In this document: positions 5,662 through 53,198 of the stretch, piece after piece
Numbering within the stretch: the first letter of the stretch is position 1
Layout of the letters: each line of letters opens with the position of its first letter
NCBI GenBank assembly: GCA_965226495.1
Contig: OZ245365.1
Span: 5,888,001 to 5,952,000 of the forward strand
Length of the DNA: 64,000 bases
Direction: 5' to 3'
Origin: Candidatus Marinacidobacterales bacterium
Lineage (GTDB): Bacteria; Acidobacteriota; Vicinamibacteria; Marinacidobacterales; DATDRI01
Notes under the pieces: model-generated
Database searches by the model: none
The model's input: the letters and a program-made list of their open reading frames with translations, nothing else
What the model was told of the DNA's origin: nothing
Made by a program: the position numbers and the translations under genes

Positions 5662-5697
5662 ATATCCGGGCGGATAGATTCCTATCCGTTCGGATAG
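5662..5697. promoter_or_regulatory. Putative operator array A
   Basis: ATATCC-gggc-GGATAG-attc-CTATCC-gttc-GGATAG; matches the arrays at 9461 and 53052. Confidence 0.6.
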
Positions 5698-5768
5698 CGT
5701 CGTACGTCGTGCCGGTGGCGAGAAGGCCGCGCTAGAAGCGGGCTTGCACGGCCGGCAACGGGCCACAT

Positions 5769-5784
5769 TGCAAGCGCTGTGCCG
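5769..5784 (-). promoter_or_regulatory. Putative sigma54 promoter for the PAP2 gene
   Basis: CGGCACAGCGCTTGCA (GG-N10-GC, close to consensus TGGCACG-N4-TTGCW). Confidence 0.6.
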
Positions 5785-5796
5785 AGCTCTTGGAGG

Positions 5797-6858
5797 CTAA
5801 AATGTCCAGCCGAGTGAGGTCGCAATGCTGAAGTCGTTGCGGGAGAAGGTCTGAACGGGGGGATCGCTATCGAAGCTCTCGTAGACGTTGACGCCAAAAA
5901 AGAGATCTTTGATGAGCTCGACTCGAACGCTGCCCTCCACCCGTAGGCGGACGCGACCCCATGTCGTCAGGTTCGGAAAAACGAAGAAACGTCCCGTGAT
6001 CTCTACCTTCGGGGTGTCGTAGCTAAAGGTTTCGTACTCTAAGCCGGCGATCGCCTCGCTGCTGGTGATGAAGTCCGTGTCCACGTACTTTTCTCTTGCG
6101 ACGCCGAGGCCGCCGATGACCGAAAGATCACTTCTGGTGGATTGGTAGAGGTGACGGCCGGCGCCCCCACCAAAGAGCCCGCGGAACTCCAAACCCTGTG
6201 TCGAGCTCTGTTGGAAGGAAGAGAGGCCGAAAGCGTACCATCGAGATCCCAAAAACCATTCATAACCTAGGTCGAGAACATTACGCGTGATTCTTTCTGC
6301 GCCTTCCTGATCCTGTAAGAGCGAACTGAAGTGTGTTGTGGCCAGATACTTTCGGGTCCGATAATTCGCCTGCGCATCGAGAGCCCATTTTTCTGCGCTA
6401 TTGGCCTCGGCGAAGCTATAGCCCAAGCTGAACGACCCCTTGACGCGCTCCCAGAAGCTTTCTTCAAAAGGCTCGATCTCGACCACCCGGAGGTAATCGA
6501 CGGGCACTTTGTCGCCGATGGAAACGACATCCAGGACCTGATTCTTGTCCCCCGGCGCGAGGGAGCCGACCAACCGGAGGCCGGAGCGGAGCGCCACGGT
6601 ATAGCGGTACTGGCTGGTGACCTTCTCGATCTTTTCCCATTCGATCTCCACCGTTCCCATGGAGTCGGTGCGGACGGTCAGCTTTCCACGCTCGAGCTTC
6701 TTGATCTCGCCCGTGACGTGGTCGCCATTAATGAGAATGATGACGTCTGTCTTGGGACGTGCCTGGACGGGACTCGCCGCGAGCGCGAACAGGGCGCCGA
6801 TAGCGGCTGTACGACTGAGCCTTGACTTGAAAAGGACGTTTTTTTCCAGACTAAACAT
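5797..6858 (-). CDS. DUF481-like outer-membrane beta-barrel protein
   Basis: Signal peptide, D.IIL.NGD..TGEI N-domain, amphipathic strands, C-terminal LGWTF. Confidence 0.8.
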   Translation of the reverse strand: MFSLEKNVLFKSRLSRTAAIGALFALAASPVQARPKTDVIILINGDHVTGEIKKLERGKLTVRTDSMGTVEIEWEKIEKVTSQYRYTVALRSGLRLVGSLAPGDKNQVLDVVSIGDKVPVDYLRVVEIEPFEESFWERVKGSFSLGYSFAEANSAEKWALDAQANYRTRKYLATTHFSSLLQDQEGAERITRNVLDLGYEWFLGSRWYAFGLSSFQQSSTQGLEFRGLFGGGAGRHLYQSTRSDLSVIGGLGVAREKYVDTDFITSSEAIAGLEYETFSYDTPKVEITGRFFVFPNLTTWGRVRLRVEGSVRVELIKDLFFGVNVYESFDSDPPVQTFSRNDFSIATSLGWTF

Positions 6859-7014
6859 GGGTTCCTCTGTAGATTCCGGGAGCTCCAGACGACTGTTTCC
6901 ATGGCATGGTGAAGTTTCCTACCAGAACGTGGTATTTTACCAGTGGCTCCCTGCAGTAACCGCCACCCGCGGGACTTGCTGGGTCAGTACAGATTGAGAG
7001 GAGCGAAACGAAAA

Positions 7015-7416
7015 ATGAGAAAGTACCTGATGATTCTACTTGCCGGCGGGATGCTGGCTTCCTGCAGTACTGCGACCGAGGTTAGCGAGCTCTCCGCCAT
7101 CCAAGGCGACTGGGAGTTGGTCTCCATCGGAGGGAGTCAAGTCCCGGTGCCCGCGCGCTACACGATTGTGTTCAACGCGGATGGCAGCTTCAACGCACGC
7201 AATGATTGCAATCAGTGCAGCGGCGGCTACACGACGGAAGGTAACAACATTAGCACCGGCGGCGCGGTTGCTTGCACGCGGGCTTTTTGTGCGCCTCCTT
7301 CCTTCTTTGACGAGTACGCCGCGGCTCTCTCGAGCATGTCCTCGTTTATAAGGGAAGGCGCGGAGCTCCGCATTCAATACGCCGGAGGCGTGCTGGTTTA
7401 TCGCGTAGCCGAGTAA
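7015..7416 (+). CDS. META/HslJ-domain lipoprotein
   Basis: Lipobox LASC; W.LVSI...DCN...G.Y...CTRAFC. Confidence 0.85.
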   Translation: MRKYLMILLAGGMLASCSTATEVSELSAIQGDWELVSIGGSQVPVPARYTIVFNADGSFNARNDCNQCSGGYTTEGNNISTGGAVACTRAFCAPPSFFDEYAAALSSMSSFIREGAELRIQYAGGVLVYRVAE

Positions 7417-7444
7417 GCACTAGCCACAACTTGGGAGTGACACC

Positions 7445-8344
7445 TTGGACCATCTGCAACGGCGTACCGACGCCGTCATTGCGGGCTACCTATTAACCAC
7501 TGCGGTCCTGGTAGCGGCGTTTCACCAGCAATTCGCGCCCTGGAAGTCGCTCGTGGCGGTCCATTTACTCGCGAGCGCCTTCATCTCCAGTCTCCGTTTT
7601 CTACCACCCAAGCTGCCGGGGGCCGTGCAATTCTTCCGCGACTGGTATCCGGTGATGGTTCTCCCTCTGCTCTACAAGGAAGTCGCGGTCTTCGCCGCAG
7701 CGTTCGGCAATTGGGGCCTCACCGCGGTTCTCCAAGACCTCGAGGTGAGCCTGTTCGCCGGTCATCCGAGCCTCTACTTGAGTGAACACCTCCCGTGGGC
7801 CCCTCTTTCAGAATATTTGCATTTCTGCTACTTCGCGTATGTGTTGATGGTTCCCGCGGTGGGAGGCTATTGGTATTACACGAAGCAGCTGACGAAATTT
7901 CGTGAGCTGGTGTTTCTCGTTTCCGTGACGTTGACGGTGAGCTACCTCTTCTTCGTCTTGTTCCCAGTGGATAGCCCCTTCTATCTCTCAGAGCCGCTTG
8001 GTGAGCCGCTCGCCGGCAACTTTTTCTACGAGTTGGTGCACTTCATGGCCGGGCAGGGCGGTGCGCGAGGTGGTGCCTTTCCCAGTTCTCACGTCTCTGT
8101 CTCGACGGTGGTCCTACTCGTGGTCTGGAACCATGACCGTCGGCTGGGTTACTTCCTGGCGCCGATCGTCGCAGGCATCTACGTGGCGACCGTCTACGGT
8201 CGTTTCCACTACGCACTAGACGTGATCGCCGGTCTCGCCCTGGCGGTTGCGATCGTGGGAAGTTATCGCGCGGTCGCCGGCCGCGAGGTGGAAGCTCGTG
8301 GTCCGACCCCGGAGGCGACGCTCACGGACAGCCCTTTGGGCTGA
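7445..8344 (+). CDS. PAP2-superfamily membrane protein (AUR1-like), paralog of 4548-5612
   Basis: FPVDSP, AFPSSH, YGRFHYALD. Confidence 0.85.
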   Translation: MDHLQRRTDAVIAGYLLTTAVLVAAFHQQFAPWKSLVAVHLLASAFISSLRFLPPKLPGAVQFFRDWYPVMVLPLLYKEVAVFAAAFGNWGLTAVLQDLEVSLFAGHPSLYLSEHLPWAPLSEYLHFCYFAYVLMVPAVGGYWYYTKQLTKFRELVFLVSVTLTVSYLFFVLFPVDSPFYLSEPLGEPLAGNFFYELVHFMAGQGGARGGAFPSSHVSVSTVVLLVVWNHDRRLGYFLAPIVAGIYVATVYGRFHYALDVIAGLALAVAIVGSYRAVAGREVEARGPTPEATLTDSPLG

Positions 8345-9392
8345 GATCGGGCCGGCCGATCCCTTCTTGGGTTCCGCACCAAGAGTACACAAGGTTGATG
8401 TCCTCGGCGGTGGGTGGAGTCACCACGCGCGCCTTCTCTTTGGTGTTGAGAACGTCGTAGAAGTCCATACGGATTCGCTTCGGGTCGATTTCCACGATCG
8501 CGAAACCGAAATTCTGCGAGAAGTGTCGCTGAGTGAGTGACGGCTGTTGTTTCGGCGGGTTGTTCTTGCCTTTGCTCTTCCCGGCCGCTCCTTGCACGAT
8601 CTGCTCGAAACCCTGCGCGGTCAGGTGCTCCTGATGATGAGCATGCCCCGCCAAGTATACGTGGACACCGCATTCTCGGATTAAAGGGTTTTCGATCAGC
8701 GCTCGCGTCCGCTCTTCTTTGGAATCTCCTCGGTGGTGTCCGCTGTTGTAGGCCGGCTGATGTCCGAAGACTAGCTTCCAACGATTGGCTTGCCTCTCCG
8801 CGCAAAGCGCCTTCTTCGCGGACGCGATTTGAAGTCCGTTCAAATCGCGCCTCTCGTCGGTATCGGTGTGAAGGGCATAAATTTGGATCCACTCCGGCAA
8901 CAGCGGAACCTCGTAGTGGAAGGTAGGGAACCGCCAGAGGGTGCTGAACTCGGAGTAGGTGAGCATGGCGGCGATCGCGTTCTTGCGATAATCGTGATTC
9001 CCCAGCGCCACCCAAAAATGAAAGCCGGGTAGGTCACGGAACGACTCGTAGGGTGCTTCGAATTTGTCATCGAACTGACGGATGATCTCTCGATAGCTCG
9101 CATCGACATTGTCTCGTGACTTCACTTCGATGCCGTCTTCGTAGATGTTGTCGCCGAGCATCAACGCAAAGTCGCACTGCCTTTCGCGGCAGACTTCGTA
9201 CATGGCCTGGCCGACGCGATACTGACCCGCCTCGCCAGTGCCCCCGTCACCGAAAACGAGGAGCACGAGCTTATCGCGATCGCTAAGGTCGGTGACGTCG
9301 AAGGGCCATGCATTTTGAATCGCGGCCAAAGCCCAGCCTGCGAAACCTACGAATAGTCCGGCCATCCCTAGAATCCACGATTTGCGTCTCAT
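8322..9392 (-). CDS. Exported metallophosphoesterase (purple acid phosphatase/TRAP-like)
   Basis: GD.G, GDNIY, GNHDY, GH, GHAH motifs; signal peptide. Confidence 0.9.
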   Translation of the reverse strand: MRRKSWILGMAGLFVGFAGWALAAIQNAWPFDVTDLSDRDKLVLLVFGDGGTGEAGQYRVGQAMYEVCRERQCDFALMLGDNIYEDGIEVKSRDNVDASYREIIRQFDDKFEAPYESFRDLPGFHFWVALGNHDYRKNAIAAMLTYSEFSTLWRFPTFHYEVPLLPEWIQIYALHTDTDERRDLNGLQIASAKKALCAERQANRWKLVFGHQPAYNSGHHRGDSKEERTRALIENPLIRECGVHVYLAGHAHHQEHLTAQGFEQIVQGAAGKSKGKNNPPKQQPSLTQRHFSQNFGFAIVEIDPKRIRMDFYDVLNTKEKARVVTPPTAEDINLVYSWCGTQEGIGRPDLSPKGCP

Positions 9393-9460
9393 TCAACTCT
9401 CCGCCTTAAAATCTTTGTACATTGTATTCCAACGCGCCGCGTCCGGGGAGCTCACCGCGC

Positions 9461-9486
9461 GGATAGCGTCCTATCCTTTTGGTTAG
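9461..9486. promoter_or_regulatory. Putative operator/UAS array B
   Basis: GGATAG-cgtc-CTATCC-tttt-GGTTAG, about 120 bp upstream of a sigma54 site. Confidence 0.6.
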
Positions 9487-9605
9487 GGCGTCCCATGGAA
9501 AGTCCACCCCGAGAGTAGGTCCGTGTCTCTCTGCTTTTCATTGAACCGTTGACGAATCATTGACTTGCGGTTCGATAGGCCTTTTTTCGAAGTCGCTACG
9601 CGGGG

Positions 9606-9621
9606 TGGAACAGACGTTGCA
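9606..9621 (+). promoter_or_regulatory. Putative sigma54 promoter for the ABC operon
   Basis: TGGAACAGACGTTGCA (GG-N10-GC). Confidence 0.65.
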
Positions 9622-9648
9622 GTAGGACCGGCCGGAGGATCTGACGGA

Positions 9649-10767
9649 ATGGATAGGCTAGTCACTGCGAACATCGCCGAACGTCCCACGAGGGCGGCGG
9701 CGAGCATTCTCGGAGTTGCGATTGGGATCGTTCTCATCGTCGTCACATCGGGTCTTGCGAAGGGAATGTTGCGAAGCACCGCGGAGCGGGAAAGCAACGT
9801 GGGGGCGGAGCTTTTGTTTCAACCACCTGGCAGCTTCGGGGCCGGCGTCACCACCACGCCTCTCTCACTACCGGTGCCATACGCGGAAGCGCTTTCGAAG
9901 CTCGATGGCGTTCAGGCCGCGACGCCGGTGGGTCGTTATGTGCGAAGTGGTGCGGGTGGGATCGGTTTCGAGCTGGTAGAGGGCATCGAATTCGAATCGA
10001 CGTCCGGTCACCAGAGCTATTCGGAGATCACGGGACTCACAGTGGTCGAAGGGCGGGAGCCCGAAGGCGATTTGGAAATCGTCATCGACCGTCAGCGAGC
10101 CGCCGACGGTGAAGCCGCAGTCGGTTCGACTATCGAGCTATTCGGCCGCGACTTCACGGTGGTCGGGATCTACGAGCCGGAGATGGGCGCGCGGATAAAG
10201 ATCCCCCTCAGTTCCATGCAGGAGCTGCTGGGCACTCATGACAAGTGTTCCTCGGTCCTCATAAAGACATCCACACCGGAGATGCAGGAAGCGGTTGCGG
10301 AGCGAGTCGAGGCGAGCTTTCCCGGCAACCAGATCATCTTCACGCGAGACATCCCTTCCTTCTACGAGAAGGGGATTCCGAGCCTGACCGTGTTTCTCGA
10401 CGTGGTGCTGGGGTTGGCGGTCGCCATCAGCGGATTGGTGGTTCTCTTGGCGATGTACACCGCGGTCTCGGCGCGAACTCGAGAGATCGGGATCCTCAAA
10501 TCGCTGGGAGCTTCAAGGCGCTTCATCGTTTCCATTATCGAAAAAGAAGCCCTTGCGATCAGCGGAATCGGCGTCGTGGTAGGACTCCTGTTTTCCTTGC
10601 TGGTGGGAACGGGCATTTCGGAACTGACTTCGTTAGTAGTGAAGATGGAGCCCATTTGGGTTTTGAAGGCTGGTCTCGTAGCTTTGCTGGCCGGAGCCGT
10701 GGGCGCTCTTTATCCGGCACTTCAAGCCGCCAAGCAGGACGCGGTGGAGGCGATATCACATGATTAA
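9649..10767 (+). CDS. ABC transporter permease, MacB/LolC-E/FtsX type
   Basis: TM1, periplasmic domain, [13 protein letters not shown] and three C-terminal TMs; GGAGG RBS before ATG 9649. Confidence 0.9.
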
Positions 10768-11596
10768 GGAACTTCAGGTCGAGATGTCGAGCCCCGCTAG
10801 ATCCTGCGGGGCGTCCAGTGGGCGTTGGGTGGCACAAATCGAGCGCGGCAGGACGCCACTCGATAACTCGCCGACGGTGCTGGAGACGACTGGTCTCGAG
10901 ATGCACTACAAGATGGGGAAAGTGACGGTACCCGCCCTCCAAGGCGTAGATCTAGAGATCTTTCAGGGAGAGTTCGTTTCCATTATGGGTAGCTCTGGCT
11001 CGGGGAAGTCAACGTTGCTTCACGTCATCGGGGGGCTCTTGTCTCCCACCGGTGGCCGCGTCTTCGTTCGCGGGGAAGACATCACTTCCATGAGCGACTC
11101 TCAAAGAACGGATCTGCGGCGTAGAGAGATCGGCTTCGTCTTTCAACGATTCAACCTCTTCCCCACACTGAGCGTGGACGAAAACCTTGTGTTGGCAGAG
11201 AGAATTCATGCCGGGGGCAGTCCTCGTCACACCGGAGACCGGGCGCGGCGAAAGGAGCTTCTCGGCCTTTTGGGATTGGCCAAGAAACTCCATCACAAGC
11301 CGAGCGAGCTCTCGGGGGGGGAACAGCAGCGGGTAGCCCTGGCGCGTGCGGTGGTGAACCGCCCCTCGATTCTTCTCGCCGATGAGCCCACCGGCAACCT
11401 CGATTCGGAGAACTCGGAGATGGTTCTTGCCATGCTTCAAAAATTAAACGGGGAGCTCGGCCAGACCATCGCAATGATCACACACGACACCGAAGCGGCC
11501 AACTACTCGATGAGAATAGTTCGCATGAAAGACGGACAAATCTGTAGCGATTCGGCCGTTGAATCGCACCATGAGCGAGAAGTCTTCACCGGATGA
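10760..11596 (+). CDS. ABC ATP-binding protein, LolD/MacB type
   Basis: [28 protein letters not shown]; start uncertain. Confidence 0.92.
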
Positions 11597-11605
11597 CTCC
11601 ATTCA

Positions 11606-11647
11606 CTAGTGTCCTGTATCAGTGGAATTGCTGATACGGGGCACGAG
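11606..11647. repeat. CTAG-ended palindrome (MITE/REP-like hairpin)
   Basis: CTAGTGTCCTGTATCAG-N8-CTGATACGGGGCACGAG. Confidence 0.55.
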
Positions 11648-11672
11648 CAACAAACAACAAGGAGGAGAATAA

Positions 11673-12089
11673 ATGAAACGACAAGCTTTGATGATTCTGC
11701 TAGGAGGGGCGTTTCTTGCCGCTTGTAGCAACTCGACTTCGGTTAGCACGCTCTCCGACGTGCAGGGCGAGTGGGAGCTTCAAGCCTTCGAGCTGAATGA
11801 CGGGAGCCTCCAACAGGTTCCCAACCCGGAAAATTACACCATCCTTTTTTCAGCCGATGGAAACGCGCATGCGCAAGTGGATTGCAATGTATGCAACGGA
11901 TCCTACGAAACCGAAGGGAATTCCATCAACTTTGGTCTCATGGCTTGCACCGTAGCGGCTTGTCCCCCGGGGTCTTTGGACTCGCAGTATCAAGCCGCTC
12001 TCGGCTCGACGTCCACTTTCGTGCGATCGGGATCCGAGCTTTCGCTTGGCTATACCGGGGGCACGATGCGGTACACCATCAGCGAGTAG
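11673..12089 (+). CDS. META-domain lipoprotein, paralog of 7015-7416
   Basis: Lipobox LAAC; DCNVCNGSY...CTVAAC. Confidence 0.85.
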   Translation: MKRQALMILLGGAFLAACSNSTSVSTLSDVQGEWELQAFELNDGSLQQVPNPENYTILFSADGNAHAQVDCNVCNGSYETEGNSINFGLMACTVAACPPGSLDSQYQAALGSTSTFVRSGSELSLGYTGGTMRYTISE

Positions 12090-12199: not shown

Positions 12200-12394
12200 T
12201 CACGTGCTGGGTCGAGCGAGAAGCAATACGCAGCCGAGCGTAGCAAGCCCTCCCAAGACGAGCAGGCTCAAATGCGTTCCGTCGCTAACGAAACGAACCG
12301 CGCCGTATAGGGCGAGGGCGTTACTGCAGAAATTGAACACCAGTCCCCAAACGCGGCCGGTCACCGGACCGTAGCGTTGGTCGAGGTCGATCAT
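12200..12394 (-). CDS. Small two-TM membrane protein
   Basis: ATGA overlap with the Nramp stop codon; MIDLDQRYGPVTGRVWGLVFN... Confidence 0.6.
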   Translation of the reverse strand: MIDLDQRYGPVTGRVWGLVFNFCSNALALYGAVRFVSDGTHLSLLVLGGLATLGCVLLLARPST

Positions 12395-13752
12395 CGCACC
12401 CACCATCCGAGTCGGTTGAAGATGTAGATGAGGGCGACTCCGTTGAGCAGCGTGATCTGGAGCATGATGCCCAGATTCCAAAGATACGATTTGGAGCGGT
12501 CTTCGCCCAGGACCTTACGATCGTTCAACAGTAAATAGAACGACCAACCGACGATGTTGTTCGCCAGCGACAAGAAGGCCCCGATCGCTACCACCAGCCA
12601 AACCGGCCGGTCGTACCAGACCGCGAGAAAGCCGATCTGCGGTGCGAGCGCGCTCAGTCGCCAACGCCAAGAGCCCGTATCGGGTTCCCAACCGAACGCT
12701 TCGTGGATAGCGATGGCTCCCGCCAGACTCATGCCCACGGTCGTCGTCACCGGCACCGCCAAAAACGCCACGAAGAAAAGCGCTTGCGACCAGGTTGGTC
12801 CCAGCAGAGGCATAAGGGATCCTGCAAGCTCGGTGGCGGTTTCCGGGAAGAGCCCGACTTTATGAAGCGTTCCCGCGAAGACAGCCATGACCAAATAGTT
12901 CACAAGTACGAAGGGTAGGAAGAGCCCGAAGACGATGTCGAACCGGGCGAGGGGCTCGTGCTTTCGTCCCCAACCGCGGGCTAGTCCGGCGTACTGAAAG
13001 AAAACCCAATCCATGACACCGATCGCAGCCGCGGAAGAGGCGACGAACAGATCCACACCCTCGACCCCAGATGGAAGCCAGGGGACGAAGAGCCCACGCA
13101 GCATGGCGCTCCAATCGACTCCGACCAGCACCAGACAGATCGCGAAGCTCACCAGCATGACCCCGATGCTGATCTTCATGAAGTTCTCGACCAACTTGAT
13201 GCCGCGTTTTCCCCGTCCATAGCTCAACGTCAAGCAGGTAGTGACCGCCATGTAGAGCACCCAGTTGTATTGACGAGGGAACTCGAACCCCAACAAAGGC
13301 GTTAGCGACTCGATGAAATGCGTGCCCAAGCTGTACTGGCCCCAATTGAAGAGGATTGCGACCGCGGCGGTGCCGACCAGCGCCGTCATCAGGGAGCCAA
13401 TGATCCAACCGTGATGCTCGTTCTGGAGGGCGATGACGCGAAAACCGCGGGTGGTGAACCGTGCGCTTGCGGCCATCATGAAACAGCCCAAGCCCATGGA
13501 TACCCAGAGAAGCCACATGGTTTTGTAGCCGAAGGTGGCGCCCGAGAGCATGGCGGCGGTCAAGGTGCCCCCACCGAGGGTCAGCGCCGCATCCATGAAG
13601 CCCGGGCCCCCGAGCCGCAAGTAGCCCGGAAGTCGAGACAACCAGGGCGCCTTGTCCAGTCGGTCGAGCTCTTTGATTTCGGCCTCGAGCTCGGCAGGCG
13701 GAATGGCCTCGGCAAGGGGATAGCGCTCGGTGCCTCGCTCGGTTTGAGCCAT
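12391..13752 (-). CDS. Nramp-related divalent cation transporter
   Basis: GPG...LTLGGG...SGATFGYKTMW, many TM segments; start reassigned to ATG 13752. Confidence 0.8.
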   Translation of the reverse strand: MAQTERGTERYPLAEAIPPAELEAEIKELDRLDKAPWLSRLPGYLRLGGPGFMDAALTLGGGTLTAAMLSGATFGYKTMWLLWVSMGLGCFMMAASARFTTRGFRVIALQNEHHGWIIGSLMTALVGTAAVAILFNWGQYSLGTHFIESLTPLLGFEFPRQYNWVLYMAVTTCLTLSYGRGKRGIKLVENFMKISIGVMLVSFAICLVLVGVDWSAMLRGLFVPWLPSGVEGVDLFVASSAAAIGVMDWVFFQYAGLARGWGRKHEPLARFDIVFGLFLPFVLVNYLVMAVFAGTLHKVGLFPETATELAGSLMPLLGPTWSQALFFVAFLAVPVTTTVGMSLAGAIAIHEAFGWEPDTGSWRWRLSALAPQIGFLAVWYDRPVWLVVAIGAFLSLANNIVGWSFYLLLNDRKVLGEDRSKSYLWNLGIMLQITLLNGVALIYIFNRLGWWVR

Positions 13753-13851
13753 GGGATTGTGGGTAGTTATACCACCCTTCTTTTCCCGGTTTTGGCTTGG
13801 TGTTGGGCCACTTTGTGTTCCAAGAGGGCTTTGAACTATTCTTGACGTCCA

Positions 13852-14931
13852 ATGCCTGTATCCGAAGCAGACACCATGAGGGCGGTCGTGATTCATGAGC
13901 ACGGCGGCCCGGAAGTACTCAAGCTCGAACCGGCTTGGCAGCGACCGAAGGCCGGGCCGGGTGAGATCCGGGTCAAGATCAAAGCGTGCGCTTTGAACTT
14001 TCTGGATGTTTTCGTTCGCGAAGGGATGCCCGGCGAGCCGACACCCCTTCCTCACATTACCGGCGGTGATATTGCAGGTGTGGTCGATTCCGTGGGGGAG
14101 GGTGTGACGCGACCAGCGGTAGGCGATCGCGTGCTTCTGAATCCCACCTGGGGATGCGGCACGTGCGAGTACTGCCTCGAGGGTCAGACACCGCGGTGCC
14201 TGCGGATACACATGTTGGGCGAGGTTGAGCCCGGCGGCCTCGCGGAATATGTGGTCTGCCCCGCCGGTCAAGCGATCCTGATTCCCGCGGGTTACTCGTT
14301 CGACGCCGCCGCGTGTTTGCCGGTTACCTACGGGACCGCTTGGCGCATGGTGGTGACGCATGGGCGCGTGAAGCCGGGGGAAGTTGTATTGGTGCTGGGT
14401 GCAGGAGGCGGCGTTGCGGTAGCCGCGATGCAGATCGCGAAGCTCCTGAACGCTCGGGTCATCGCAACTGCATCCACCGCAGAGAAGCTGGCTCGGGCCA
14501 AGGAGTTCGGGGCCGACGACGTCATTAACTATGTCGAGGATGAGGAGTGGGACCAGGCTGTTCGGCGGCTCACTGGAAAACGTGGGGTGGAGGTGGTGAT
14601 CGAGTCGGTCGGTGCCGCCACTTGGGAAGGTAGCATCCGGGCGCTCGGCAAGGGGGGGCGCCTGGTAACCTGTGGTGCTACTTCGGGTCCTATCGGCCCT
14701 ACCGACATCCGCTATCTATTTCGGCGCGAGCAGAAACTTCTGGGCAGTAACGGTTGGACTCATGAGGAGCTCGAGGAAGTCACCACCCTAGCCTTCGAAG
14801 GCAAGCTCCGCCCGGTAGTGGATCGAACGCTGCCTCTCGAACGCACCGCCGAAGGAGAGATCGCTCTCGAGAAACGCGAAGTCTTCGGAAAAGTCGTCAT
14901 CCGACCGGAGAATGGAGATGCTGCCCGATAA
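13852..14931 (+). CDS. Zinc-binding MDR alcohol dehydrogenase/quinone oxidoreductase
   Basis: CGTCEYC...C structural Zn site, GAGGGV, GATSG. Confidence 0.9.
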   Translation: MPVSEADTMRAVVIHEHGGPEVLKLEPAWQRPKAGPGEIRVKIKACALNFLDVFVREGMPGEPTPLPHITGGDIAGVVDSVGEGVTRPAVGDRVLLNPTWGCGTCEYCLEGQTPRCLRIHMLGEVEPGGLAEYVVCPAGQAILIPAGYSFDAAACLPVTYGTAWRMVVTHGRVKPGEVVLVLGAGGGVAVAAMQIAKLLNARVIATASTAEKLARAKEFGADDVINYVEDEEWDQAVRRLTGKRGVEVVIESVGAATWEGSIRALGKGGRLVTCGATSGPIGPTDIRYLFRREQKLLGSNGWTHEELEEVTTLAFEGKLRPVVDRTLPLERTAEGEIALEKREVFGKVVIRPENGDAAR

Positions 14932-41368: not shown

Positions 41369-41372
41369 CGAG

Positions 41373-45621: not shown

Positions 45622-45623
45622 CC

Positions 45624-45881: not shown

Positions 45882-45906
45882 CTCCCTTGTGCTACGATCA
45901 TGACCG

Positions 45907-46893
45907 ATGGTCGTCTTACGCCCTTTGACCCACCGCGTCCTCATGGGGGCTTTGTCCGCAGTATTTCTAAGCGCCGCGTCCCCGTGGGCCAGAAGTCTTC
46001 CCAGCTACATCGACGGGTTCCTCCTGGAGCTGCGAGACGGGAATCGCCAGCGTATTTCGAGACTCGAGGCATCGGGGATCGCCTACAGTCAGGGCCGGCT
46101 AGTGGTCGTCGACGATGTGTTGAGCTCCCTCTTTGTTTTTGATCGCCTGGGGATACTCTCGCAGATGGTATCCCTGGAGGGGTTTCCTGCCGAGGGCGCC
46201 AAGTTCGAGGACTTGGCGTTCGACGAGGTTTCTCAGAGCTTCTTCGCAGTGGGCTCTCATTCGGGATGGGAGCAGGATAGGCTGCAGGCCACGAGCGTAC
46301 TTCTTCGGTTTCGGCTCAAAGAAGGGGCCGAAGGACTGGAGCCCACCGCGAACCGAATCGAAACGTTTCCACTCTACAAGAGCTTCGAGCAACTGGGGCT
46401 CTGGCGTCCAAAGGGCATGAAGATCGAGGGCTTGGCTTTCAACCCGTTGTCGTCGGAGCTTTACGTGGGCCTTAGGGAGCCGACTGACCGAGCCCGCGTT
46501 TACCGCCTCTCGCTGTCCGACTTGGAGAATGCGGCGCGGGGTGGGCCGCCAGCGGAGCTCGAGTTGGCGGCGAGCTTCGATGCCGGGATGATCGAGGATA
46601 CGCCGTTTTGTATTTCGTCGCTTCTCTGGGTTTCCGAGCGTCACGGACTGTTGATTGGCACCAGCACGGAAGACGAGACGACGCACCGTTTCCTGGGTAA
46701 CCGTCTCTGGTTCTACTCGACCGCGGGTCGAGTAGAGCTCCTCCAAGACACCTTCGACCGGGGTAAAAAGACAGAAGGCCTAGCGCAAGGCGACGATTAC
46801 TTGTACATCAGCTACGACAACGATCAGGACGACACCGAGTTGCCGAGCTACGTCCGCACTCTACCCATGGACAGTCTCTTCGGCCCCGACTAA
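45907..46893 (+). CDS. Exported beta-propeller-like hypothetical protein (DUF3616/phytase-like)
   Basis: Signal peptide; EASG, FEDLA..GSHS, IEGLA..GLREP, TEGL. Confidence 0.65.
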   Translation: MVVLRPLTHRVLMGALSAVFLSAASPWARSLPSYIDGFLLELRDGNRQRISRLEASGIAYSQGRLVVVDDVLSSLFVFDRLGILSQMVSLEGFPAEGAKFEDLAFDEVSQSFFAVGSHSGWEQDRLQATSVLLRFRLKEGAEGLEPTANRIETFPLYKSFEQLGLWRPKGMKIEGLAFNPLSSELYVGLREPTDRARVYRLSLSDLENAARGGPPAELELAASFDAGMIEDTPFCISSLLWVSERHGLLIGTSTEDETTHRFLGNRLWFYSTAGRVELLQDTFDRGKKTEGLAQGDDYLYISYDNDQDDTELPSYVRTLPMDSLFGPD

Positions 46894-46909
46894 AAGGTGA
46901 ATCGCCGCC

Positions 46910-49738
46910 GTGGTCGTTGAAAAACTCAATCGCGCCGACGTTGAGCGACGAATTTTGCGGGCGTTGCGTGAGCTATTGAGCGACTTGGGAGGAGGTCGGG
47001 CGCTCGCCGCGGTGGAGCTCGATGCCTCAATCGAAAGGGATCTCGGTCTGGGAAGCCTAGAGCGAGTGGAGCTCCTCTCCCGACTGGAGAGCGCTTTTGC
47101 GGTAGAGCTTCCCGAATCTGCCTTGGCCGAAGCCGAGACACCCGCCGACCTCGTTGAATTCGTCCTCTCGGTGGAGGCTCCGATCGCCAACGCAAGAGTG
47201 GAAGCCGCGCCGCCGGTCGTTGCCAGTCCATCGCTTTTCGTCGAATCGGAGACTCTCCTCGAAGTGCTTCGTCTCCGAGCAGAGGCGGAGCCTCGAAGAC
47301 CGCACATTCGTCTTCAGGGCGAGCGCGGTCGGGAAGAAGTCATTCGATACGGTGAGCTGCATCGAAGGGCCTGCGAAGTGGCGGGTGGGCTTGCGGAGCG
47401 CGGGGTCGGCCGGGGCGATACGGTGGCCCTCATGCTCCCCACGAGCAGCGACTTCTTCAGTGCCTTTGCCGGGATTCTCCTCGCCGGCGGCGTGCCGGTC
47501 CCCCTGTATCCTCCTTTCAGCCTGGACAGAATCGAAGAGTATGTGGGTCGCCAGGCAGACATCCTCGTCAACTCCCAGGCCGACACGCTCATAACCGTCG
47601 AGCGGGGCCGCTCGGTGGGTCAACTCTTGCGCAGCCGGACGCCCAACATAAGGCATGTCACGACGGTCGACGAGCTTCGCTCGAGCGCGACCGCATTGCC
47701 GGCCCTATCTGTCGATCCGACTGCCCCGGCACTCATTCAGTACACCTCTGGAAGTACCGGCGATCCCAAAGGGGCATTACTTTCTCACCGGAATCTTCTC
47801 TCGAACATTCGAGCGATCGGCGAGGCGCTCGATTTGAAACCGACCGACGTGGGTGTCAGCTGGCTGCCTCTGTACCACGACATGGGTTTGATCGGTTGCT
47901 GGCTGACTCCTCTCGTCTTTGGATTTCCGATCACCATCATGTCGCCGTTGACGTTTCTGTCCAGACCCGAACGGTGGTTGTGGGCGATCCACTCCCGGCG
48001 GGCCACCCTTTCTGCGGCACCTAACTTCGGTTACGAGCTCTGCGTAAGAAAGATCCGAGAGGAAAAGTTGGAGGGACTCGATCTTTCGAGCTGGCGCGGA
48101 GCGCTCAATGGGGCCGAGCCGGTCTCGGCGGACACTATAGATCGGTTCAGTCGAAGGTTTGCGGCCTACGGCTTTCAACCCCAAGCAATGACGCCGGTTT
48201 ACGGTTTGGCGGAATCCTCCCTGGCTCTGTCTATTCCTCCTATCGGTCGTGGACTGCGTGTCGAGAGAATCTCACGAGACCCATTCGAAAACGAGATGCG
48301 GGCGACACCCTCTACCGATAATGATAAGACGGCGCTCCGGTTCGTCTCCGCCGGGTCGCCCCTACCTGGGCATGAGCTTCGGGTCGTCGATGAGGAGGGC
48401 AAGGAACTTCCGGAAAGGGTCGAGGGGGCGCTTCACTTTCGCGGCCCATCCACCATGAGGAGTTACTTCCGAAACACCGAGGCTACGGAGTCGATATCGA
48501 AGCCGGATGGCTGGCTGGACTCCGGGGATCGCGCCTTCGTGGTCGACGGAGAGTATTTCATTACCGGACGCGCCAAGGACATTATCATCCGGGCCGGACG
48601 CAACTTGTATCCCCAGACGATCGAGGAAGTGGTTGCCGACGTGGAAGGAGTGCGGCGCGGTTGTGTCGTCGCTTTCGGTGTCAACGATGCCCGGCTGGGA
48701 ACCGAGAAGGTCGTCGTGGTCGCCGAAGCACGCGTCGAAGCTGACGATGCAAGAGAAAGACTCGCTCTGACGATTCACCAGCGTCTTCTTGACTTGCTTG
48801 GTATCGCGGCGGACGAGGTTCTTGTCGTTCCACCACGCACAGTTCCCAAGACCTCCAGTGGGAAGCTCAGACGCTCGAGCTGTCGAAGCCAGTACCTGAA
48901 GGGGGAGCTCTCGCGAAACAAGCGAGGAAGCCGATTCCTAGTGTGGCAAATGGCCATCCACGCCGCGGTGCTGTCCGTACGTCGCGGCTCGTCCGCGCTC
49001 GGGCGATTTGTCTACGGAGTGTACGTTCTCTTCGTGGCCGCCGGCTTGTTCCTCCCGGTCTGGGCACTTTCCTGGCTTGTTCCCAGATGTCTGTTCTCCC
49101 ACCTATCGCGAATCGGAATCCGACTCTTCTTGTTCTTGGCAGGATACCGCCTTCGAGTAAGCGGTCTGGAGCATCTGGAGGCCGCGATAGAGGGGCCCTT
49201 CGTTCTGGTCTCCAATCATGCCAGCTACATCGACCCGTTGCCTTTGCTGGCGGGGCTCCCGCTCGACTTCGCCTTCGTCGTCAAGAGCGACGCCATGGCT
49301 TGGCCGTTGATGGGAAGACTCATTGAGCGTCTCGGTCACCTGTCGGTTGAGCGCGGCGATCGAAAAAGCAGCGTTAGAGACGCGGAAAAATTTGGGGATG
49401 CCTTGAAGGAGGGGCGCTCGGTCTTCTTCTTCCCGGAAGGGACCTTTACGCGTGCCACTGGATTGCGTCCCTTCAAGATGGGTGCCTTCAAGCTGGCGGC
49501 CGAAGGGGGTTGGGCCATTGTGCCGATAGCGCTCGTGGGTACCCGACGTTTTCTGAGAGATGGGACGTGGCTTCCTCGCGCGAGTGAGCTTACGATTGTG
49601 GTGGAGGCCCCGCTTCTCGCCAGGAACGCCTCGCTCGCTGAGATGGTTCGTTTACGAGACCAGGCAGCGGAGCAAATCGCACGCCACGTCGGCGAACCGC
49701 GGCTCGATTTAATTTCTGCGGGTCGACCATTGTCTTAG
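46910..49738 (+). CDS. ACP / fatty acyl-AMP ligase / PlsC acyltransferase fusion
   Basis: DLGLGSLERVEL carrier Ser; QYTSGSTG, VSWLPLYHDMGLIG, YGLAE, KTSSGK; NHASYID and FPEGT. Confidence 0.9.
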   Translation: MVVEKLNRADVERRILRALRELLSDLGGGRALAAVELDASIERDLGLGSLERVELLSRLESAFAVELPESALAEAETPADLVEFVLSVEAPIANARVEAAPPVVASPSLFVESETLLEVLRLRAEAEPRRPHIRLQGERGREEVIRYGELHRRACEVAGGLAERGVGRGDTVALMLPTSSDFFSAFAGILLAGGVPVPLYPPFSLDRIEEYVGRQADILVNSQADTLITVERGRSVGQLLRSRTPNIRHVTTVDELRSSATALPALSVDPTAPALIQYTSGSTGDPKGALLSHRNLLSNIRAIGEALDLKPTDVGVSWLPLYHDMGLIGCWLTPLVFGFPITIMSPLTFLSRPERWLWAIHSRRATLSAAPNFGYELCVRKIREEKLEGLDLSSWRGALNGAEPVSADTIDRFSRRFAAYGFQPQAMTPVYGLAESSLALSIPPIGRGLRVERISRDPFENEMRATPSTDNDKTALRFVSAGSPLPGHELRVVDEEGKELPERVEGALHFRGPSTMRSYFRNTEATESISKPDGWLDSGDRAFVVDGEYFITGRAKDIIIRAGRNLYPQTIEEVVADVEGVRRGCVVAFGVNDARLGTEKVVVVAEARVEADDARERLALTIHQRLLDLLGIAADEVLVVPPRTVPKTSSGKLRRSSCRSQYLKGELSRNKRGSRFLVWQMAIHAAVLSVRRGSSALGRFVYGVYVLFVAAGLFLPVWALSWLVPRCLFSHLSRIGIRLFLFLAGYRLRVSGLEHLEAAIEGPFVLVSNHASYIDPLPLLAGLPLDFAFVVKSDAMAWPLMGRLIERLGHLSVERGDRKSSVRDAEKFGDALKEGRSVFFFPEGTFTRATGLRPFKMGAFKLAAEGGWAIVPIALVGTRRFLRDGTWLPRASELTIVVEAPLLARNASLAEMVRLRDQAAEQIARHVGEPRLDLISAGRPLS

Positions 49739-50135
49739 GTGGTGTCCGAGTCGTAACCGTTTTGGATCGCGTCCACCTCTATTTCGATGAGCATGTCTTT
49801 GTGGATGAGAGAACGGACCTCGATCATGGAGGTGGCGGGTGGATGCTCGGCGAAGAACTCCTGGTGGGCCCGTCCGAATTCTTCCCAGCGACCGATATCG
49901 GTCACGAACATTCGAGTGCGGACCACCGCGGCGCGGCCAACGCTGAGCTCTTGGAGCGCCTTGTCGACGATCTCGAGGCATCTCTTGGCCTGAGCGTAGC
50001 CGTCACCCACAGCGAACACTCCACCGTTGTCATCGACCGGCGCGGTTCCGGAAATGAAGATATGGTCCCCCGCCTTCACGGCGCGGCAATATCCGACCTT
50101 CGACTCCCAGGGGGCGCCGGAGAAGACGCGTTTTG
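49735..50135 (-). CDS. RidA-family protein; canonical start codon not found
   Basis: RVFSGAPWESKVGYCRAV...ISGT..VRTRMFV..P.TSM..IEIE. Confidence 0.85.
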
Positions 50136-50140
50136 GAAGG

Positions 50141-52063
50141 TTAGTTTTTGAGATTTTCTTTGATATCCAGGTTGCGGATAAGACGATGGAGGTAGTTGGG
50201 ATGGAGACCGAGGAATTTTGCGGCCTCGGTGTAATTACCGCCGGATTGCTTGACCGCCTCGATGATCAATTCCTTTTTCTTCTCGCTGACCGCATCGTGG
50301 TACTTCGTCAGGGAGGTGCCGGACGCGGGACCCGTTTCGGTCAGCGTTTCCGGCAAGTCTTCCGGCAATATCACATCGGTCGAGCCTAGGACGACCGAGC
50401 GTTCGATGGCGTTTTCCAGTTCTCTGATGTTGCCCGGCCAACGATAGCGTTCCAACATCTTTACCGCTTCGGCCGAGAGGCCGGTAACCCGCCTCTTCGT
50501 TTTCCCGCTGTACTTCGATGTGAAATAGCTTGCAAGCGTCGAGATGTCTTCGCGACGCTCCCGAAGGGGTGGCAGCGTGATGGCCACGACGTTGAGACGA
50601 TGGAAGAGATCTTCGCGGAAGGCCCCCTTCTTTACTTCCTCCGCCAGATCGCGGTTGGTGGCGGCGACGAGCCGGATGTCCACTCGAATGGGCCGGGTTC
50701 CGCCCACCCGGTCGAACTCGCGATCCTGCAGCACCCGTAGCAACTTCGCTTGGAGAGAGGCGGGAAGCTCGCCAATCTCATCCAAGAAAGCCGTTCCTCC
50801 GTTGGCAATTTCTAGCTTGCCCTTCTTCTGGGCGATGGCTCCCGTAAAGGCCCCCCTCTCGTGTCCGAAGAGCTCACTTTCCAAGAGGTTTTCCGTCAGG
50901 GTCGCGCAATCGATCTTCACCAGTGGCTTGCGCGCCCGACGGCTATTGATATGAAGCGCCCGCGCGACGAGCTCCTTTCCCGTACCACTTTCTCCATGGA
51001 TGAGGACGGTGGCGTCGGTGGGGGCCACCTTGGCGATAAACCGATAGACTTCCCGAAGGCGGGGGCTTTCACCCACCATGTTGTGCTCGAGATCGTAATC
51101 ATCTCGCAACCGGAGGTTTTCTGACTGCAAGTCGTCCAAGCGATACACGTTTTGCAGGGCCGCGGCCGCGATTCCAGCAATCGCGGTCAAGAGCTCGAGT
51201 TGGTCTTCGTGGAACTCGGCCTCGGGGTCCTGGGAATCGAGGTAAATGGCACCGATCACACGCTCCGAGCGAATGAGCGGCAGGCAAAACACAGACTGGA
51301 TGCCGCGTCCGATGAGGCTCTTGGCGTCACGAAACTTCGCACTCTCCTCGAGACGATTGCTCAGGATCGCTGCTTTTTCGTTAATCGCTTGGGCGACGAT
51401 GGTCCGGCTCACTTGAACCGACTGTTTCCCGGAATGGTCCAAACCGAAGGATGTGACGAACTCCTTCGAATTTTCTCCGGGACCGAGCAATATAGCTCCC
51501 CTCTGAGCCGGTACGATGGCGAAGATCTGCTCGAGAATCGTTCGTTGAAGGGCGTTGACGTCTTGTTCCGACGCGAGCGCGTTGCTTACTTTTAGCAGGG
51601 CGCTCAAATCCCGTTCTACGCGGGCCGGCGGAATCTTCGCCGAGTGGAGTTTGCTGGGATTCAAATATACGGCATCGTCTCGGCGGAGCCGCACGGTCGG
51701 ACCAAACGGAGATGCCTCCTCGGCCAATTCAACTTCGGCCGACGGCGTCGCATCCACCTCGTGGAGCAGGAACAAGAACATAGCGCCGGCGAAGCCGATG
51801 CGATCCTCGTGCTCGAGCAATTGCTCTTTGATGGGGACCCCGTTAACGAAGGTTCCGTTGTGGCTACCTAGATCGATGACTTTGAACTGCCCGTTCTGGT
51901 TCCTGATGACGCAGTGCTCTCTCGAAATCCAATGTTCGTTGATGCAGACCAGGTTCTCCGGGTCCCGTCCGATGGAGGTCTCCTCTTCTTCAAGCGGGAT
52001 GACGGTTCCCTGGAGTCGGCCACTGACCGCTACTAATCGGGGAATCGTGGTGTCGTTTCCCAT
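50141..52063 (-). CDS. FHA-GAF sigma54 enhancer-binding protein
   Basis: FHA (IGR..SREH..S.NGT), [25 protein letters not shown] and a Fis-type HTH. Confidence 0.93.
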
Positions 52064-52195
52064 TCACTCCCTCTGAAAGTTGTCTGAGGTCCGCGTATCG
52101 GCAAAGCGTACCAATTGGATAGCTGGACTTCAATTGTCTTCCATTGTCGGGGCTCGTATCCGACGATCGTACTGAAATCTTGCCATAATGGCGGA

Positions 52196-53044
52196 ATGAC
52201 ACATCGATCACTTCGGGTGGGGCAGATTCTCGCTGTTGCCACTCTCTGCGGAGTCGGTGCGTCAGCCGAAGAGCTTCGTTCGGAAGCGTTACGTGCCTGG
52301 GACGCCTATGTGGAGCTGACCGAGCAAAGAATCGCCGAGGAACTGGAGAGCGAAGAAGGGTTCTTGGTGATGGATTTCTTGCCGCCCGCCGATGCGAGCC
52401 GGGCCCAGGAGGTTATGTTTTCGAGGGACGTCTTCGTTTTGAAAATGGAGACACGTAACGAGGAGGGACGAAAGATCGAAGTTCCGGACGGGATGATCCA
52501 TCATTGGTATGGATCCATCTTCGTGCCCGGAGCGGCGCTTCTAGACGTCATCGCGTGGGAGCAGAACTATGCCCAGCACTCCGATTATTTCGACGAGGTG
52601 GTGGAGTCCCGACTCCTGTCCCGCGAAGAAGACGTCTTTAGTGTTTTCCTCAAACTGAGGCGGAAAAAGGTCATTACCGTGCAGTACAACACCGAGCACC
52701 TCGTGGTCTACGCAAGCTATGGACCGACGCGGGCTTCCAGCAAGAGTGAGGCTACTCGCATCGCCGAGCTCGAGGACCCCGGAACGCCCCGGGAGCGGGA
52801 GAAATCGCCAGGACTGGACAGTGGCTTCCTCTGGAAGTTGAACTCTTACTGGCGGTTCAAGGAACTACCCGGCGGCGTCGCGATCGAGTGCGAATCGGTG
52901 AGCCTGAGTCGAGGTATCCCTTCCGGCCTCGCGTGGATGCTTCGAACCTACGTGGAGTCGGTGCCGAAGGAGTCACTCGAAAAAGCTCTGGTGCCCATCC
53001 AACGTAGTCTGGGTAGCGCGTCCAATGAAAAGGACGGCCGGTAG
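52196..53044 (+). CDS. Exported hypothetical protein, possible START/SRPBCC-like fold
   Basis: Signal peptide; IHHW.G, GFLW.LNSYWRF, ECES.SLSR; paralog of 55262-56146. The fold call is inference. Confidence 0.7.
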   Translation: MTHRSLRVGQILAVATLCGVGASAEELRSEALRAWDAYVELTEQRIAEELESEEGFLVMDFLPPADASRAQEVMFSRDVFVLKMETRNEEGRKIEVPDGMIHHWYGSIFVPGAALLDVIAWEQNYAQHSDYFDEVVESRLLSREEDVFSVFLKLRRKKVITVQYNTEHLVVYASYGPTRASSKSEATRIAELEDPGTPREREKSPGLDSGFLWKLNSYWRFKELPGGVAIECESVSLSRGIPSGLAWMLRTYVESVPKESLEKALVPIQRSLGSASNEKDGR

Positions 53045-53051
53045 GAAATTC

Positions 53052-53077
53052 AGATAGCGATCTATCCGATCGGATAG
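53052..53077. promoter_or_regulatory. Putative operator/UAS array C
   Basis: AGATAG-cgat-CTATCC-gatc-GGATAG, about 107 bp upstream of a sigma54 site. Confidence 0.6.
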
Positions 53078-53182
53078 CTCCCGGCGTTCTCCGACCCTTC
53101 GGCAATGCTAAGCCGACGCCCCAACCTCCTCTGTACCAAGGAATTAGTGGAGGGGTGCACAATCGGGCCAAGGGCCGCTTCC

Positions 53183-53198
53183 TGGTACGCCCATTGCA
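53183..53198 (+). promoter_or_regulatory. Putative sigma54 promoter
   Basis: TGGTACGCCCATTGCA (GG-N10-GC). Confidence 0.7.

Follow-up and report, generated by a model that had tools for sequence, protein, structure and literature searches.

Palindromic sites beside sigma-54-type promoters and a candidate FHA-GAF activator in a Marinacidobacterales bacterium

The locus and its repeated arrays

The stretch of DNA analysed here, referred to as the window, comprises 64,000 nucleotides of contig OZ245365.1 of a Candidatus Marinacidobacterales bacterium (phylum Acidobacteriota; assembly GCA_965226495.1). It contains three intergenic arrays of alternating hexamers, designated A1, A2 and A3, each of which lies close to a word resembling a sigma-54-dependent promoter. 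The arrays are associated with a gene for a PAP2-type lipid phosphatase, an operon for a MacB/FtsX-type ABC transporter and a META-domain protein, and a four-gene operon starting with a CDP-alcohol phosphatidyltransferase gene, respectively (Table 1). A gene for an FHA-GAF protein of the sigma-54 activator class is located near A3. It is considered probable that the arrays are enhancers of sigma-54 promoters, which would act through the FHA-GAF protein and control a small envelope-lipid regulon.

Table 1. Features of the window and of two further loci of the same genome (C1, contig used for the genome-wide scans)
Feature	Position	Strand	Description
PAP2-superfamily lipid phosphatase gene	4548-5610	minus	Pfam PAP2_3, E 7e-11; ATG at 5610
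Array A1	5662-5697	minus	ATATCC-N4-GGATAG-N4-CTATCC-N4-GGATAG as written on the plus strand; intergenic
Sigma-54-type -24/-12 word, PAP2 side	5769-5784	minus	CGGCACAGCGCTTGCA, score 6/7
Array A2	9461-9486 (9451-9486 with weak half-site)	plus	GGATAG-N4-CTATCC-N4-GGTTAG; weak fourth half-site CTCACC at 9451; intergenic
Sigma-54-type promoter, ABC operon	9606-9621	plus	TGGAACAGACGTTGCA, score 6/7
MacB/FtsX-type permease	9649-10767	plus	Pfam MacB_PCD/FtsX; ABC operon 9649-12089
ABC ATPase	10760-11596	plus	Pfam ABC_tran; ABC operon
META-domain protein	11673-12089	plus	Pfam META; ABC operon
Candidate activator	50141-52063	minus	Pfam FHA, GAF, Sigma54_activat, AAA lid, HTH_8
Secreted protein X1	52196-53044	plus	Between activator gene and A3; no Pfam/NCBIfam family
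Array A3	53052-53077	plus	AGATAG-N4-CTATCC-N4-GGATAG; intergenic
Sigma-54-type promoter, CDP-alcohol transferase operon	53183-53198	plus	TGGTACGCCCATTGCA, score 6/7
CDP-alcohol phosphatidyltransferase	53264-54013	plus	Pfam CDP-OH_P_transf; first of four-gene operon 53264-56146
GtrA-like protein	54010-54456	plus	Pfam GtrA
LolA-like protein	54453-55265	plus	Pfam LolA-like
START-like protein X2	55262-56146	plus	Secreted; predicted fold
Array A4	C1:1328768-1328803		Fourth array of the genome, outside the window
Outer-membrane beta-barrel gene behind A4	C1:1327986-1328636		Pfam OMP_b-brl
Candidate array A5	C1:4268650-4268687		Two 2-mismatch palindromes, from a joint palindrome and promoter scan
157-aa gene behind A5	C1:4268082-4268555		Probable target

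The hexamers follow each other with a start-to-start step of 10 bp throughout A1, A2 and A3. Their positions and period had been given in a preliminary description of the window and were confirmed by the sequence, and their intergenic placement was judged from lists of open reading frames. Read on the minus strand, A1 consists of two abutting palindromes, CTATCCgaacGGATAG and CTATCCgcccGGATAT; the proximal palindrome of A2 is CTATCCttttGGTTAG, and that of A3, CTATCCGATCGGATAG, is perfect. The three GG-N10-GC words are likewise found at the positions and on the strands first described, and come near the sigma-54 consensus TGGCAC-N5-TTGCW. The distance from the end of the array to the GG is 121 bp for A2 and 107 bp for A3, as the preliminary description had stated.

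Rarity of the sites and coupling to sigma-54-type promoters

Genome-wide scans of the source genome (G000) were performed on a single contig (C1) of 6,337,479 bases with a G+C content of 59%. To score sigma-54-like words, GG and GC were fixed and seven further consensus positions of the reference TGGCAC-N5-TTGCW were counted. Sigma-54 itself is encoded in the genome (rpoN; PF04552 match with E 7e-64, 498-aa frame at C1:2404276-2404749).

Single hexamers are frequent, with 1018 and 909 genomic copies of GGATAG or CTATCC. Exact GGATAG-N4-CTATCC occurs three times in the genome and exact CTATCC-N4-GGATAG twice, every copy being part of an array, and other spacings between the hexamers yield zero to two copies. 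Within the window, GGATAGNNNNCTATCC was found seven times when up to two mismatches were allowed, compared with 1.56 expected matches, and none of 100 shuffled sequences reached seven. The three-hexamer pattern with at most one mismatch is present at only four loci in 6.34 Mb, namely A1, A2, A3 and the array A4 outside the window. Each of these lies no more than 150 bp from a sigma-54-like word scoring 6/7, and 156 words with a score of 6 or 7 exist on both strands of the genome. Since about 0.8% of the genome is located within 150 bp of such a word, the probability that four out of four arrays do so by chance is approximately 1e-8. The genome scan thus bears out the link to sigma-54 sites and shows that the motif is not a dispersed repeat, as all four strong arrays are found beside strong sigma-54-like words.

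The joint scan for palindromes and promoters revealed the additional candidate A5, which sits 60-82 bp upstream of TGGCACGTGACTTGCT, a word with the full sigma-54 score of 7/7. All five promoters associated with A1 to A5 score 6 or 7 of 7. The leader between promoter and gene has a length of about 16-56 nt at four of these sites and of 147 nt at the PAP2 gene. The preliminary description had proposed a hidden regulon across 47 kb of the window; the coupling between arrays and sigma-54 words is real, but the regulon extends beyond this segment, to C1:1328768 and probably to C1:4268650.

The conserved unit and its distribution in relatives

The comparison covered 55 genomes of the order including G000, which belong to three families: f1 (G000 and seven others), f2 (19 genomes) and f3 (28 genomes). 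Exact CTATCC-N4-GGATAG was found at 24 sites in 15 of the 55 genomes, that is, in G000, three of the seven other members of f1, 11 of 19 members of f2 and none of the 28 members of f3; the reversed-pattern control gave six sites. Exact GGATAG-N4-CTATCC is present at nine sites in seven genomes, six of the nine lie within arrays, and a single f2 genome out of 19 has one. Since the exact counts across the order favour CTATCC-N4-GGATAG over GGATAG-N4-CTATCC, the 16-bp palindrome CTATCC-N4-GGATAG is regarded as the conserved unit, and the consensus of 30 sites is CTATCCGAWCGGATAG. GGATAG-N4-CTATCC, which had first been taken as the motif, is present in the arrays but is formed wherever one unit follows another after a gap of 4 bp. 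In G000, the units usually abut with a centre-to-centre distance of 20 bp, thereby producing the alternating hexamers with a 10-bp period. Second units or half-sites are found 20-22 or 42 bp off, corresponding to two or four turns of the helix.

With up to two mismatches, the three-hexamer pattern was detected in six of 41 genomes (G000, G002, G003, G004, G007 and G038), and the reversed-pattern controls were near zero. At five of the six three-hexamer loci in relatives, a sigma-54-like word is found at a distance of 55-140 bp; the remaining locus, at the PAP2 ortholog of G002, is discussed below. Of the loci with an exact palindrome, 13 out of 14 possess a sigma-54-like word within 100 bp, which is directed away from the palindrome, and the locus of G020 is the one without. 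The distance between palindrome centre and promoter ranges from 50 to 146 bp at the 30 sites and shows a periodicity of about 10.8 bp (R = 0.62), a value of R that was reached by none of 2000 random sets. When close kin were dropped, the phasing persisted in the remaining 23 sites (p ~0.002). Such a preference for one face of the helix is predicted by looping between an enhancer and the sigma-54 polymerase.

The genes behind the sites are conserved as well. A comparison of 19 downstream regions with all frames of G000 identified six orthologs of the MacB-like permease, eight of the CDP-alcohol transferase, one of the beta-barrel protein behind A4 and four other genes, and the orthologs share 53-84% protein identity. 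Arrays orthologous to A2 are present in G003 and G007, and TGGAAC-N5-TTGCA is kept before the MacB-like orthologs. At the place orthologous to the promoter at 53183-53198, G002 carries TGGTATGCCCATTGCA. Orthologs in G005, G008, G028 and G034 are preceded by palindromes with one or two mismatches and by promoters, and the public locus L064 has two palindromes and a divergent promoter before the transferase ortholog. Taken together, the motif and a sigma-54-type promoter were found before the MacB-like operon in eight relatives and before the transferase operon at 12 relatives' loci; the conservation upstream of orthologs proposed in the preliminary description is therefore seen for both operons in two families, always with a sigma-54-type promoter. 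The A5 pair is kept in G002, and the site was not found before weak homologs in G005 and G001.

One of the genomes, G007, is unpublished; it supplies an array before the MacB-like ortholog (L002), a palindrome before the transferase ortholog (L039) and an activator ortholog with 73% identity (L016). All conclusions hold without it, and the same picture is obtained from G003, G002 and the f2 genomes. The rarity of the sites, their coupling to sigma-54-like words, their conservation and their helical phasing are established at the level of sequence analysis.

A candidate activator

The protein encoded at 50141-52063 contains an AAA+ sigma-54 interaction domain (PF00158, E 8.8e-71, residues 329-495) and a DNA-binding helix-turn-helix (HTH) domain (PF02954 HTH_8, residues 597-627). 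In eight orthologs with 54-62% identity, the Walker A motif GESGTGKE and the GAFTGA motif are invariant. The same is true for a 10-residue stretch of the recognition helix, whose flanking residues vary, and the characteristic residues of the FHA signature are kept in the eight orthologs, too. About 20 activators of this class are encoded in G000, but only the protein at 50141-52063 carries this DNA-binding domain. Its best NCBIfam match is NifA (TIGR01817) with 429.4 bits, compared with a cut-off of 528.85, and no named equivalog was reached.

In four genomes (G026, G030, G038 and G024), a perfect palindrome lies directly upstream of the start of the activator ortholog, at a distance of 36-94 bp to the matched coding sequence; beyond this palindrome, G030 and G038 have the divergent promoter of the MacB-like operon. 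A search of public loci with the activator alignment returned mostly paralogs, which were matched via the common AAA+ core, and orthologs were only found at L061-L064. Just upstream of the orthologs at L061, L063 and L064 (51-56% identity), two palindromes or an array of four half-sites are present, and the homolog at L065 (43% identity) has no site upstream. Between the activator gene and the closest site, the distance amounts to 1.0, 3.9, 3.5 and 7.1 kb in G000, G005, G008 and G028, respectively. An ortholog of X1 is situated between the activator gene and the site in G000 and G005 and, judged by the upstream coding ends, also in G008 and G028. Neither the activator nor either of the two target operons is present in G001 and G006, and all 28 genomes of f3 are devoid of both the activator domain and the palindrome.

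The FHA-GAF-AAA+-HTH_8 protein is the best candidate for the protein that would bind the palindromes, given its invariant recognition helix and the many genomes in which its orthologs adjoin such sites. The preliminary description had named it as the nearest candidate, and this proposal gains support from the complete domain set of an enhancer-binding protein and from the physical linkage between its orthologs and the sites, binding itself being predicted.

A search for autoregulation in the 132 bp that separate X1 from the activator gene identified one GGATAG half-site at 52116-52121, which is followed by GTATCC 39 bp later. Autoregulation from this segment (52112-52160) is not supported, as the gap contains no proper palindrome. 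On the opposite strand, the 3' end of the activator gene is adjoined by a gene for a 942-aa fusion protein (46910-49738, plus strand), which consists of a phosphopantetheine carrier, an AMP-binding enzyme and an acyltransferase and resembles acyl-ACP (acyl carrier protein) synthetase/lysophospholipid acyltransferase.

Proposed mechanism and comparison with known systems

According to the proposed mechanism, a dimer of the activator would bind each palindrome through its Fis-type HTH, and adjacent dimers on the same face of the helix would nucleate an active ring. DNA looping over 50-146 bp could then bring the ring into contact with the sigma-54 polymerase at the -24/-12 element, and the promoter would be opened by ATP hydrolysis. 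The input might be received by the FHA domain, which would recognize a phospho-threonine partner, and by the GAF domain, which may bind a small ligand. The regulon would be small and comprise the MacB-like ABC/META operon, the operon for the transferase and the GtrA-like, LolA-like and START-like proteins, the beta-barrel gene behind A4, probably the 157-aa gene behind A5 and, in some way, the PAP2 gene. The binder, its input signals and the lipid function of the regulon are all predictions.

The enhancers of NtrC-type regulators, for which glnAp2 is the paradigm, are palindromic dimer sites for a Fis-type HTH; they are located approximately 50-150 bp upstream of GG-N10-GC, are often paired on one face of the helix and act by looping. 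The sites described here show or imply each of these features. However, the input of the candidate activator would be received by FHA and GAF domains instead of a receiver domain, the targets are different, and one site is located downstream of its promoter. The order of GAF, AAA+ and HTH_8 domains is shared with NifA and FhlA, which lack the additional FHA domain, and the NifA score stays under the cut-off. FHA-domain sigma-54 activators were reportedly described in Myxococcus xanthus by Jelsbak, Givskov and Kaiser in 2005; the protein studied here resembles them in the absence of a receiver and the N-terminal FHA domain, which implies control by Ser/Thr phosphorylation, but differs by the GAF domain that follows the FHA domain and by its association with envelope lipid genes rather than development. 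No kinase gene is present among the annotated genes of the window, which are a part of all its genes.

In Caulobacter, FlbD and its ftr sites provide an example of one sigma-54 activator and one motif that serve several promoters, with activation or repression depending on position, according to a review (PMC3930126). The domains, motif and regulon of FlbD are unrelated to those described here, and a dual role of the candidate activator is only suggested by the position of A1. A theme of sigma-54 as controller of the bacterial exterior has already been published (PMC3162934), and a regulon for envelope and lipid transport functions would fit it. In a 2025 survey of sigma-54 regulons, the string 'Acidobacteri' does not occur (PMC12316311). 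The literature searches, which covered the articles themselves, yielded nothing on the motif CTATCCGAWCGGATAG or on acidobacterial FHA-GAF activators. Novel elements are the motif, the regulon and their connection with a putative module for lipid transport. Since the mechanism would follow the classical enhancer/sigma-54 scheme, the gain lies in a new regulon and a new motif rather than in a new principle.

Regulatory studies on Acidobacteriota are very scarce, and no site or target is known for most of their numerous sigma-54 activators. The present case supplies a precise operator, a short list of target promoters and one candidate activator that is kept over two families, and the hypothesis is therefore directly testable. 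In addition, it joins scattered chromosomal genes for a transferase, GtrA, PAP2, a MacB-like ABC transporter, LolA-like and START-like proteins into one functional module.

Alternative explanations

A1 might be either a downstream enhancer or an operator restraining transcription. The start codon of the PAP2 gene is preceded by a GGAGG box, and the reading frame is shared with G002 without indels. A1 is located between the sigma-54-like word and this start codon. From the word, a transcription start at about 5757 is deduced, which places A1 at approximately +60 to +95 of the 147-nt leader. A weaker sigma-54-like word at 5590-5605 (minus strand) was rejected as the PAP2 promoter, as it lies inside the frame that is kept without indels in G002 and begins after the GGAGG box. 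Neither sigma-70 promoters nor terminators were detected in a scan of 5400-6000.

Three observations speak against A1 as an ordinary activating site. First, it lies downstream of its promoter, as the preliminary description had correctly noted. Second, although it is 95-115 bp away from the promoter, it deviates by 2.6-4.2 bp from the common helical phase. Third, the GG of the -24 element is not kept at the PAP2 ortholog of G002, where AG is found instead. A1 might instead serve as an operator, and the bound protein would block or modulate PAP2 transcription that starts at the 5769-5784 promoter or reads through from the DUF481 gene, so that one protein would activate some genes and repress another. 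The position within the leader and the deviating phase would fit such an operator, as would the fact that A1 is the most complete site of the genome. It is also kept in G002 despite the lost GG: 35 of 36 bases are identical in this member of the same genus, A1 and the next 25 bases differ at one position, and the spacer on the promoter side is far less conserved. However, the absolute distance to the promoter falls into the range of activating sites, and enhancer-binding proteins can in principle act from either side. Moreover, no further promoter-like word was found between A1 and the ATG in the sigma-54 and sigma-70 scans. The loss of the GG says little, since the similarity to G002 breaks exactly at the -24 element, beside which a different gene is located in G002. 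The operator is thus a possible, though not the favoured, explanation, and the PAP2 gene is assigned to the regulon only in the broad sense given above.

A second alternative accepts the palindromes as enhancer or operator sites but assumes a different binder, either an accessory regulator or another enhancer-binding protein, and regards the FHA-GAF protein as only a neighbour or as another member of the module. This touches the proposal of one activator for three targets, which was part of the preliminary description: the orthologous ABC and transferase operons do carry the sites, but the array at the PAP2 gene has an atypical position and five genomes contain sites without the activator. In these five genomes (G003, G012, G016, G018 and G034), a palindrome and a promoter are present at orthologous operons, several of the sites are perfect, and no ortholog of the activator domain was found, the best matches being approximately 31-33% identical. 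A DNA search of these genomes with the activator gene of G026 only revealed a 51-nt remnant of the 3' end in G016. A substitute was sought in G003; nine activator genes were fetched, of which L144 was not recovered, and none of the eight recovered proteins carries the helix. Across the 55 genomes, the exact palindrome and the activator domain occur together in 11, the palindrome alone in four, the domain alone in six and neither in 34; within f1 and f2, the corresponding numbers are 11, 4, 6 and 6, which amounts to a weak co-occurrence. The activator of G002 has lost residues 1 to ~373 through a deletion of about 1.36 kb, and in G004 the gene is split into three pieces, yet the sites persist in both genomes. 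In several other genomes, only short frames match the activator domain, some of which may be due to assembly frameshifts. Finally, the sigma-54 score is a plain consensus count, and kinship among the compared genomes means that the samples are not independent. All these points weigh against the proposed mechanism, and the alternative draws further support from the roughly 20 activators of this class in G000 and from the finding that the sites are equally well kept in genomes with and without the FHA-GAF activator.

Several lines of evidence nevertheless favour the FHA-GAF protein over another binder. Its gene is adjacent to or near sites at at least 11 loci, and among the examined loci, no other regulator gene was seen adjacent to a site. 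Like the motif, the recognition helix of the protein is invariant, and no second protein of G000 possesses its DNA-binding domain. The activators common to G000 and G003 carry other helices, and at least the 469-aa activator has counterparts in genomes without the target operons, as judged by matches of the DNA-binding domain. The truncation in G002 and the short remnant in G016 point to loss of the activator gene. Part of the mismatch between palindrome and activator is technical: the gene of G024 is cut at a contig end, and the sites in G005, G008 and G028 are near-perfect. The activator-less genomes would hence reflect either frequent recent loss of the activator with lingering sites or a different binder, and the latter is regarded as unlikely.

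The assumption that the arrays are a dispersed or chance repeat without a regulatory role, in favour of which nothing was found apart from the abundance of single hexamers, is hardly credible and, as far as sequence evidence goes, refuted by the scans, given the small number of arrays and their place beside strong sigma-54-like words, the conservation of the sites before orthologs, the low reversed-pattern controls and the helically phased promoter spacing.

Another observation concerns the activator deletion in G002 (region L035, G002:C3:3366000-3379000), which also takes the start of X1; around the A3 site and the transferase gene, the sequence is interrupted by insertions of about 1.5 and 2.8 kb.

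A putative lipid module

The transferase operon is translationally coupled, and an ATGA overlap is seen. X1 and X2 are secreted paralogs with 50% identity. No NCBIfam family was found for X1, X2, PAP2, GtrA, the DUF481 protein or the 157-aa protein. The structural model of X2 (pLDDT 83.4, pTM 0.81) was compared with known structures using Foldseek, which returned START-type lipid or ligand binders with a probability of 1.00. The best match is the STAR-related lipid transfer protein 3qsz (E 1.5e-8), and the START domain of CERT is also among the matches; the TM-scores, normalised to target length, range from 0.4 to 0.8 at a sequence identity of 8-18%. X1 presumably adopts a START/SRPBCC-like fold as well. 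A third paralog of this family, which shares 35% identity with X2, is encoded at L141 1-738 (C1:4264000-4264738, plus strand), on the strand opposite to the 157-aa gene behind A5, whose end is about 3.3 kb away.

In G005, the genes for the transferase, GtrA, MacB-like, LolA-like and X proteins form one operon behind one site, and in G026 the MacB-like, ABC, LolA-like and X genes follow one site. These merged operons indicate that both operons of the window belong to one pathway. A MacB-type ABC transporter and a periplasmic carrier with LolA fold are also the shared elements of the Lol pathway (LolCDE and LolA) and of the flexirubin-associated LolA2. However, the equivalog level of Lol proteins was not reached in NCBIfam (lolCE, 45 bits versus a cut-off of 362; lolA, 52 versus 112), the match to LolA2_flexi is weak and far under the cut-off, and the module additionally contains the CDP-alcohol transferase, GtrA, PAP2 and the secreted START-like proteins. 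These additional components suggest that the cargo would be a lipid rather than lipoproteins, and the module is predicted to make a polar lipid and to carry it across the periplasm.

A more far-reaching and tentative idea is that the regulon might be an on-demand pathway, a lipid counterpart of the Lol system, for an unusual polar lipid that would be ferried to the outer membrane. The CDP-alcohol transferase and PAP2 would serve its synthesis, and transport could involve a GtrA-type flippase, a MacB-type extractor, the secreted LolA-like and START-like carriers and the beta-barrel protein. The FHA-GAF activator would wire the pathway to Ser/Thr-kinase signalling by activating from upstream sites and restraining PAP2 from the downstream site, and the repeated loss of the activator with retention of the sites may mean that the module is being silenced in some lineages. 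This comprehensive scenario is rather doubtful as a whole.

Four genes without arrays of their own are located between A1 and A2 (5797-9392): the DUF481 gene, another META gene (6943-7416), another PAP2 gene (7445-8344) and a gene for a metallophosphoesterase (8322-9392). The region corresponding to 4946-9156 is absent from G003, so that fragments of the metallophosphoesterase and PAP2 genes adjoin each other. The end of the A3 operon faces a convergent frame of 2219 aa (56209-62868, minus strand), in which TamB/YhdP-like regions are combined with four POTRA repeats and an Omp85 barrel.

Further observations

A 656-aa frame at 12391-14361 (minus strand) matches an Nramp transporter domain at residues 268-622 only, and its long N-terminal part has no assigned domain. 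Two transposase frames of G000 (C1:6290520-6291884 and C1:1919489-1920979; one of the Mutator family, one with DUF772) share 99.8% and 99.0% protein identity with frames of G018 and G026 (L053 1441-2787 and L054 11828-13300). These two genomes belong to another family, and housekeeping orthologs are approximately 55% identical; either a recent exchange of insertion sequences or cross-contamination of the assemblies could account for the near-identity. DNA nearly identical to 52900-54300 is present in contigs of 20 listed public runs from nine studies, with no RNA run among those listed, and the organism or close strains therefore recur in many samples.

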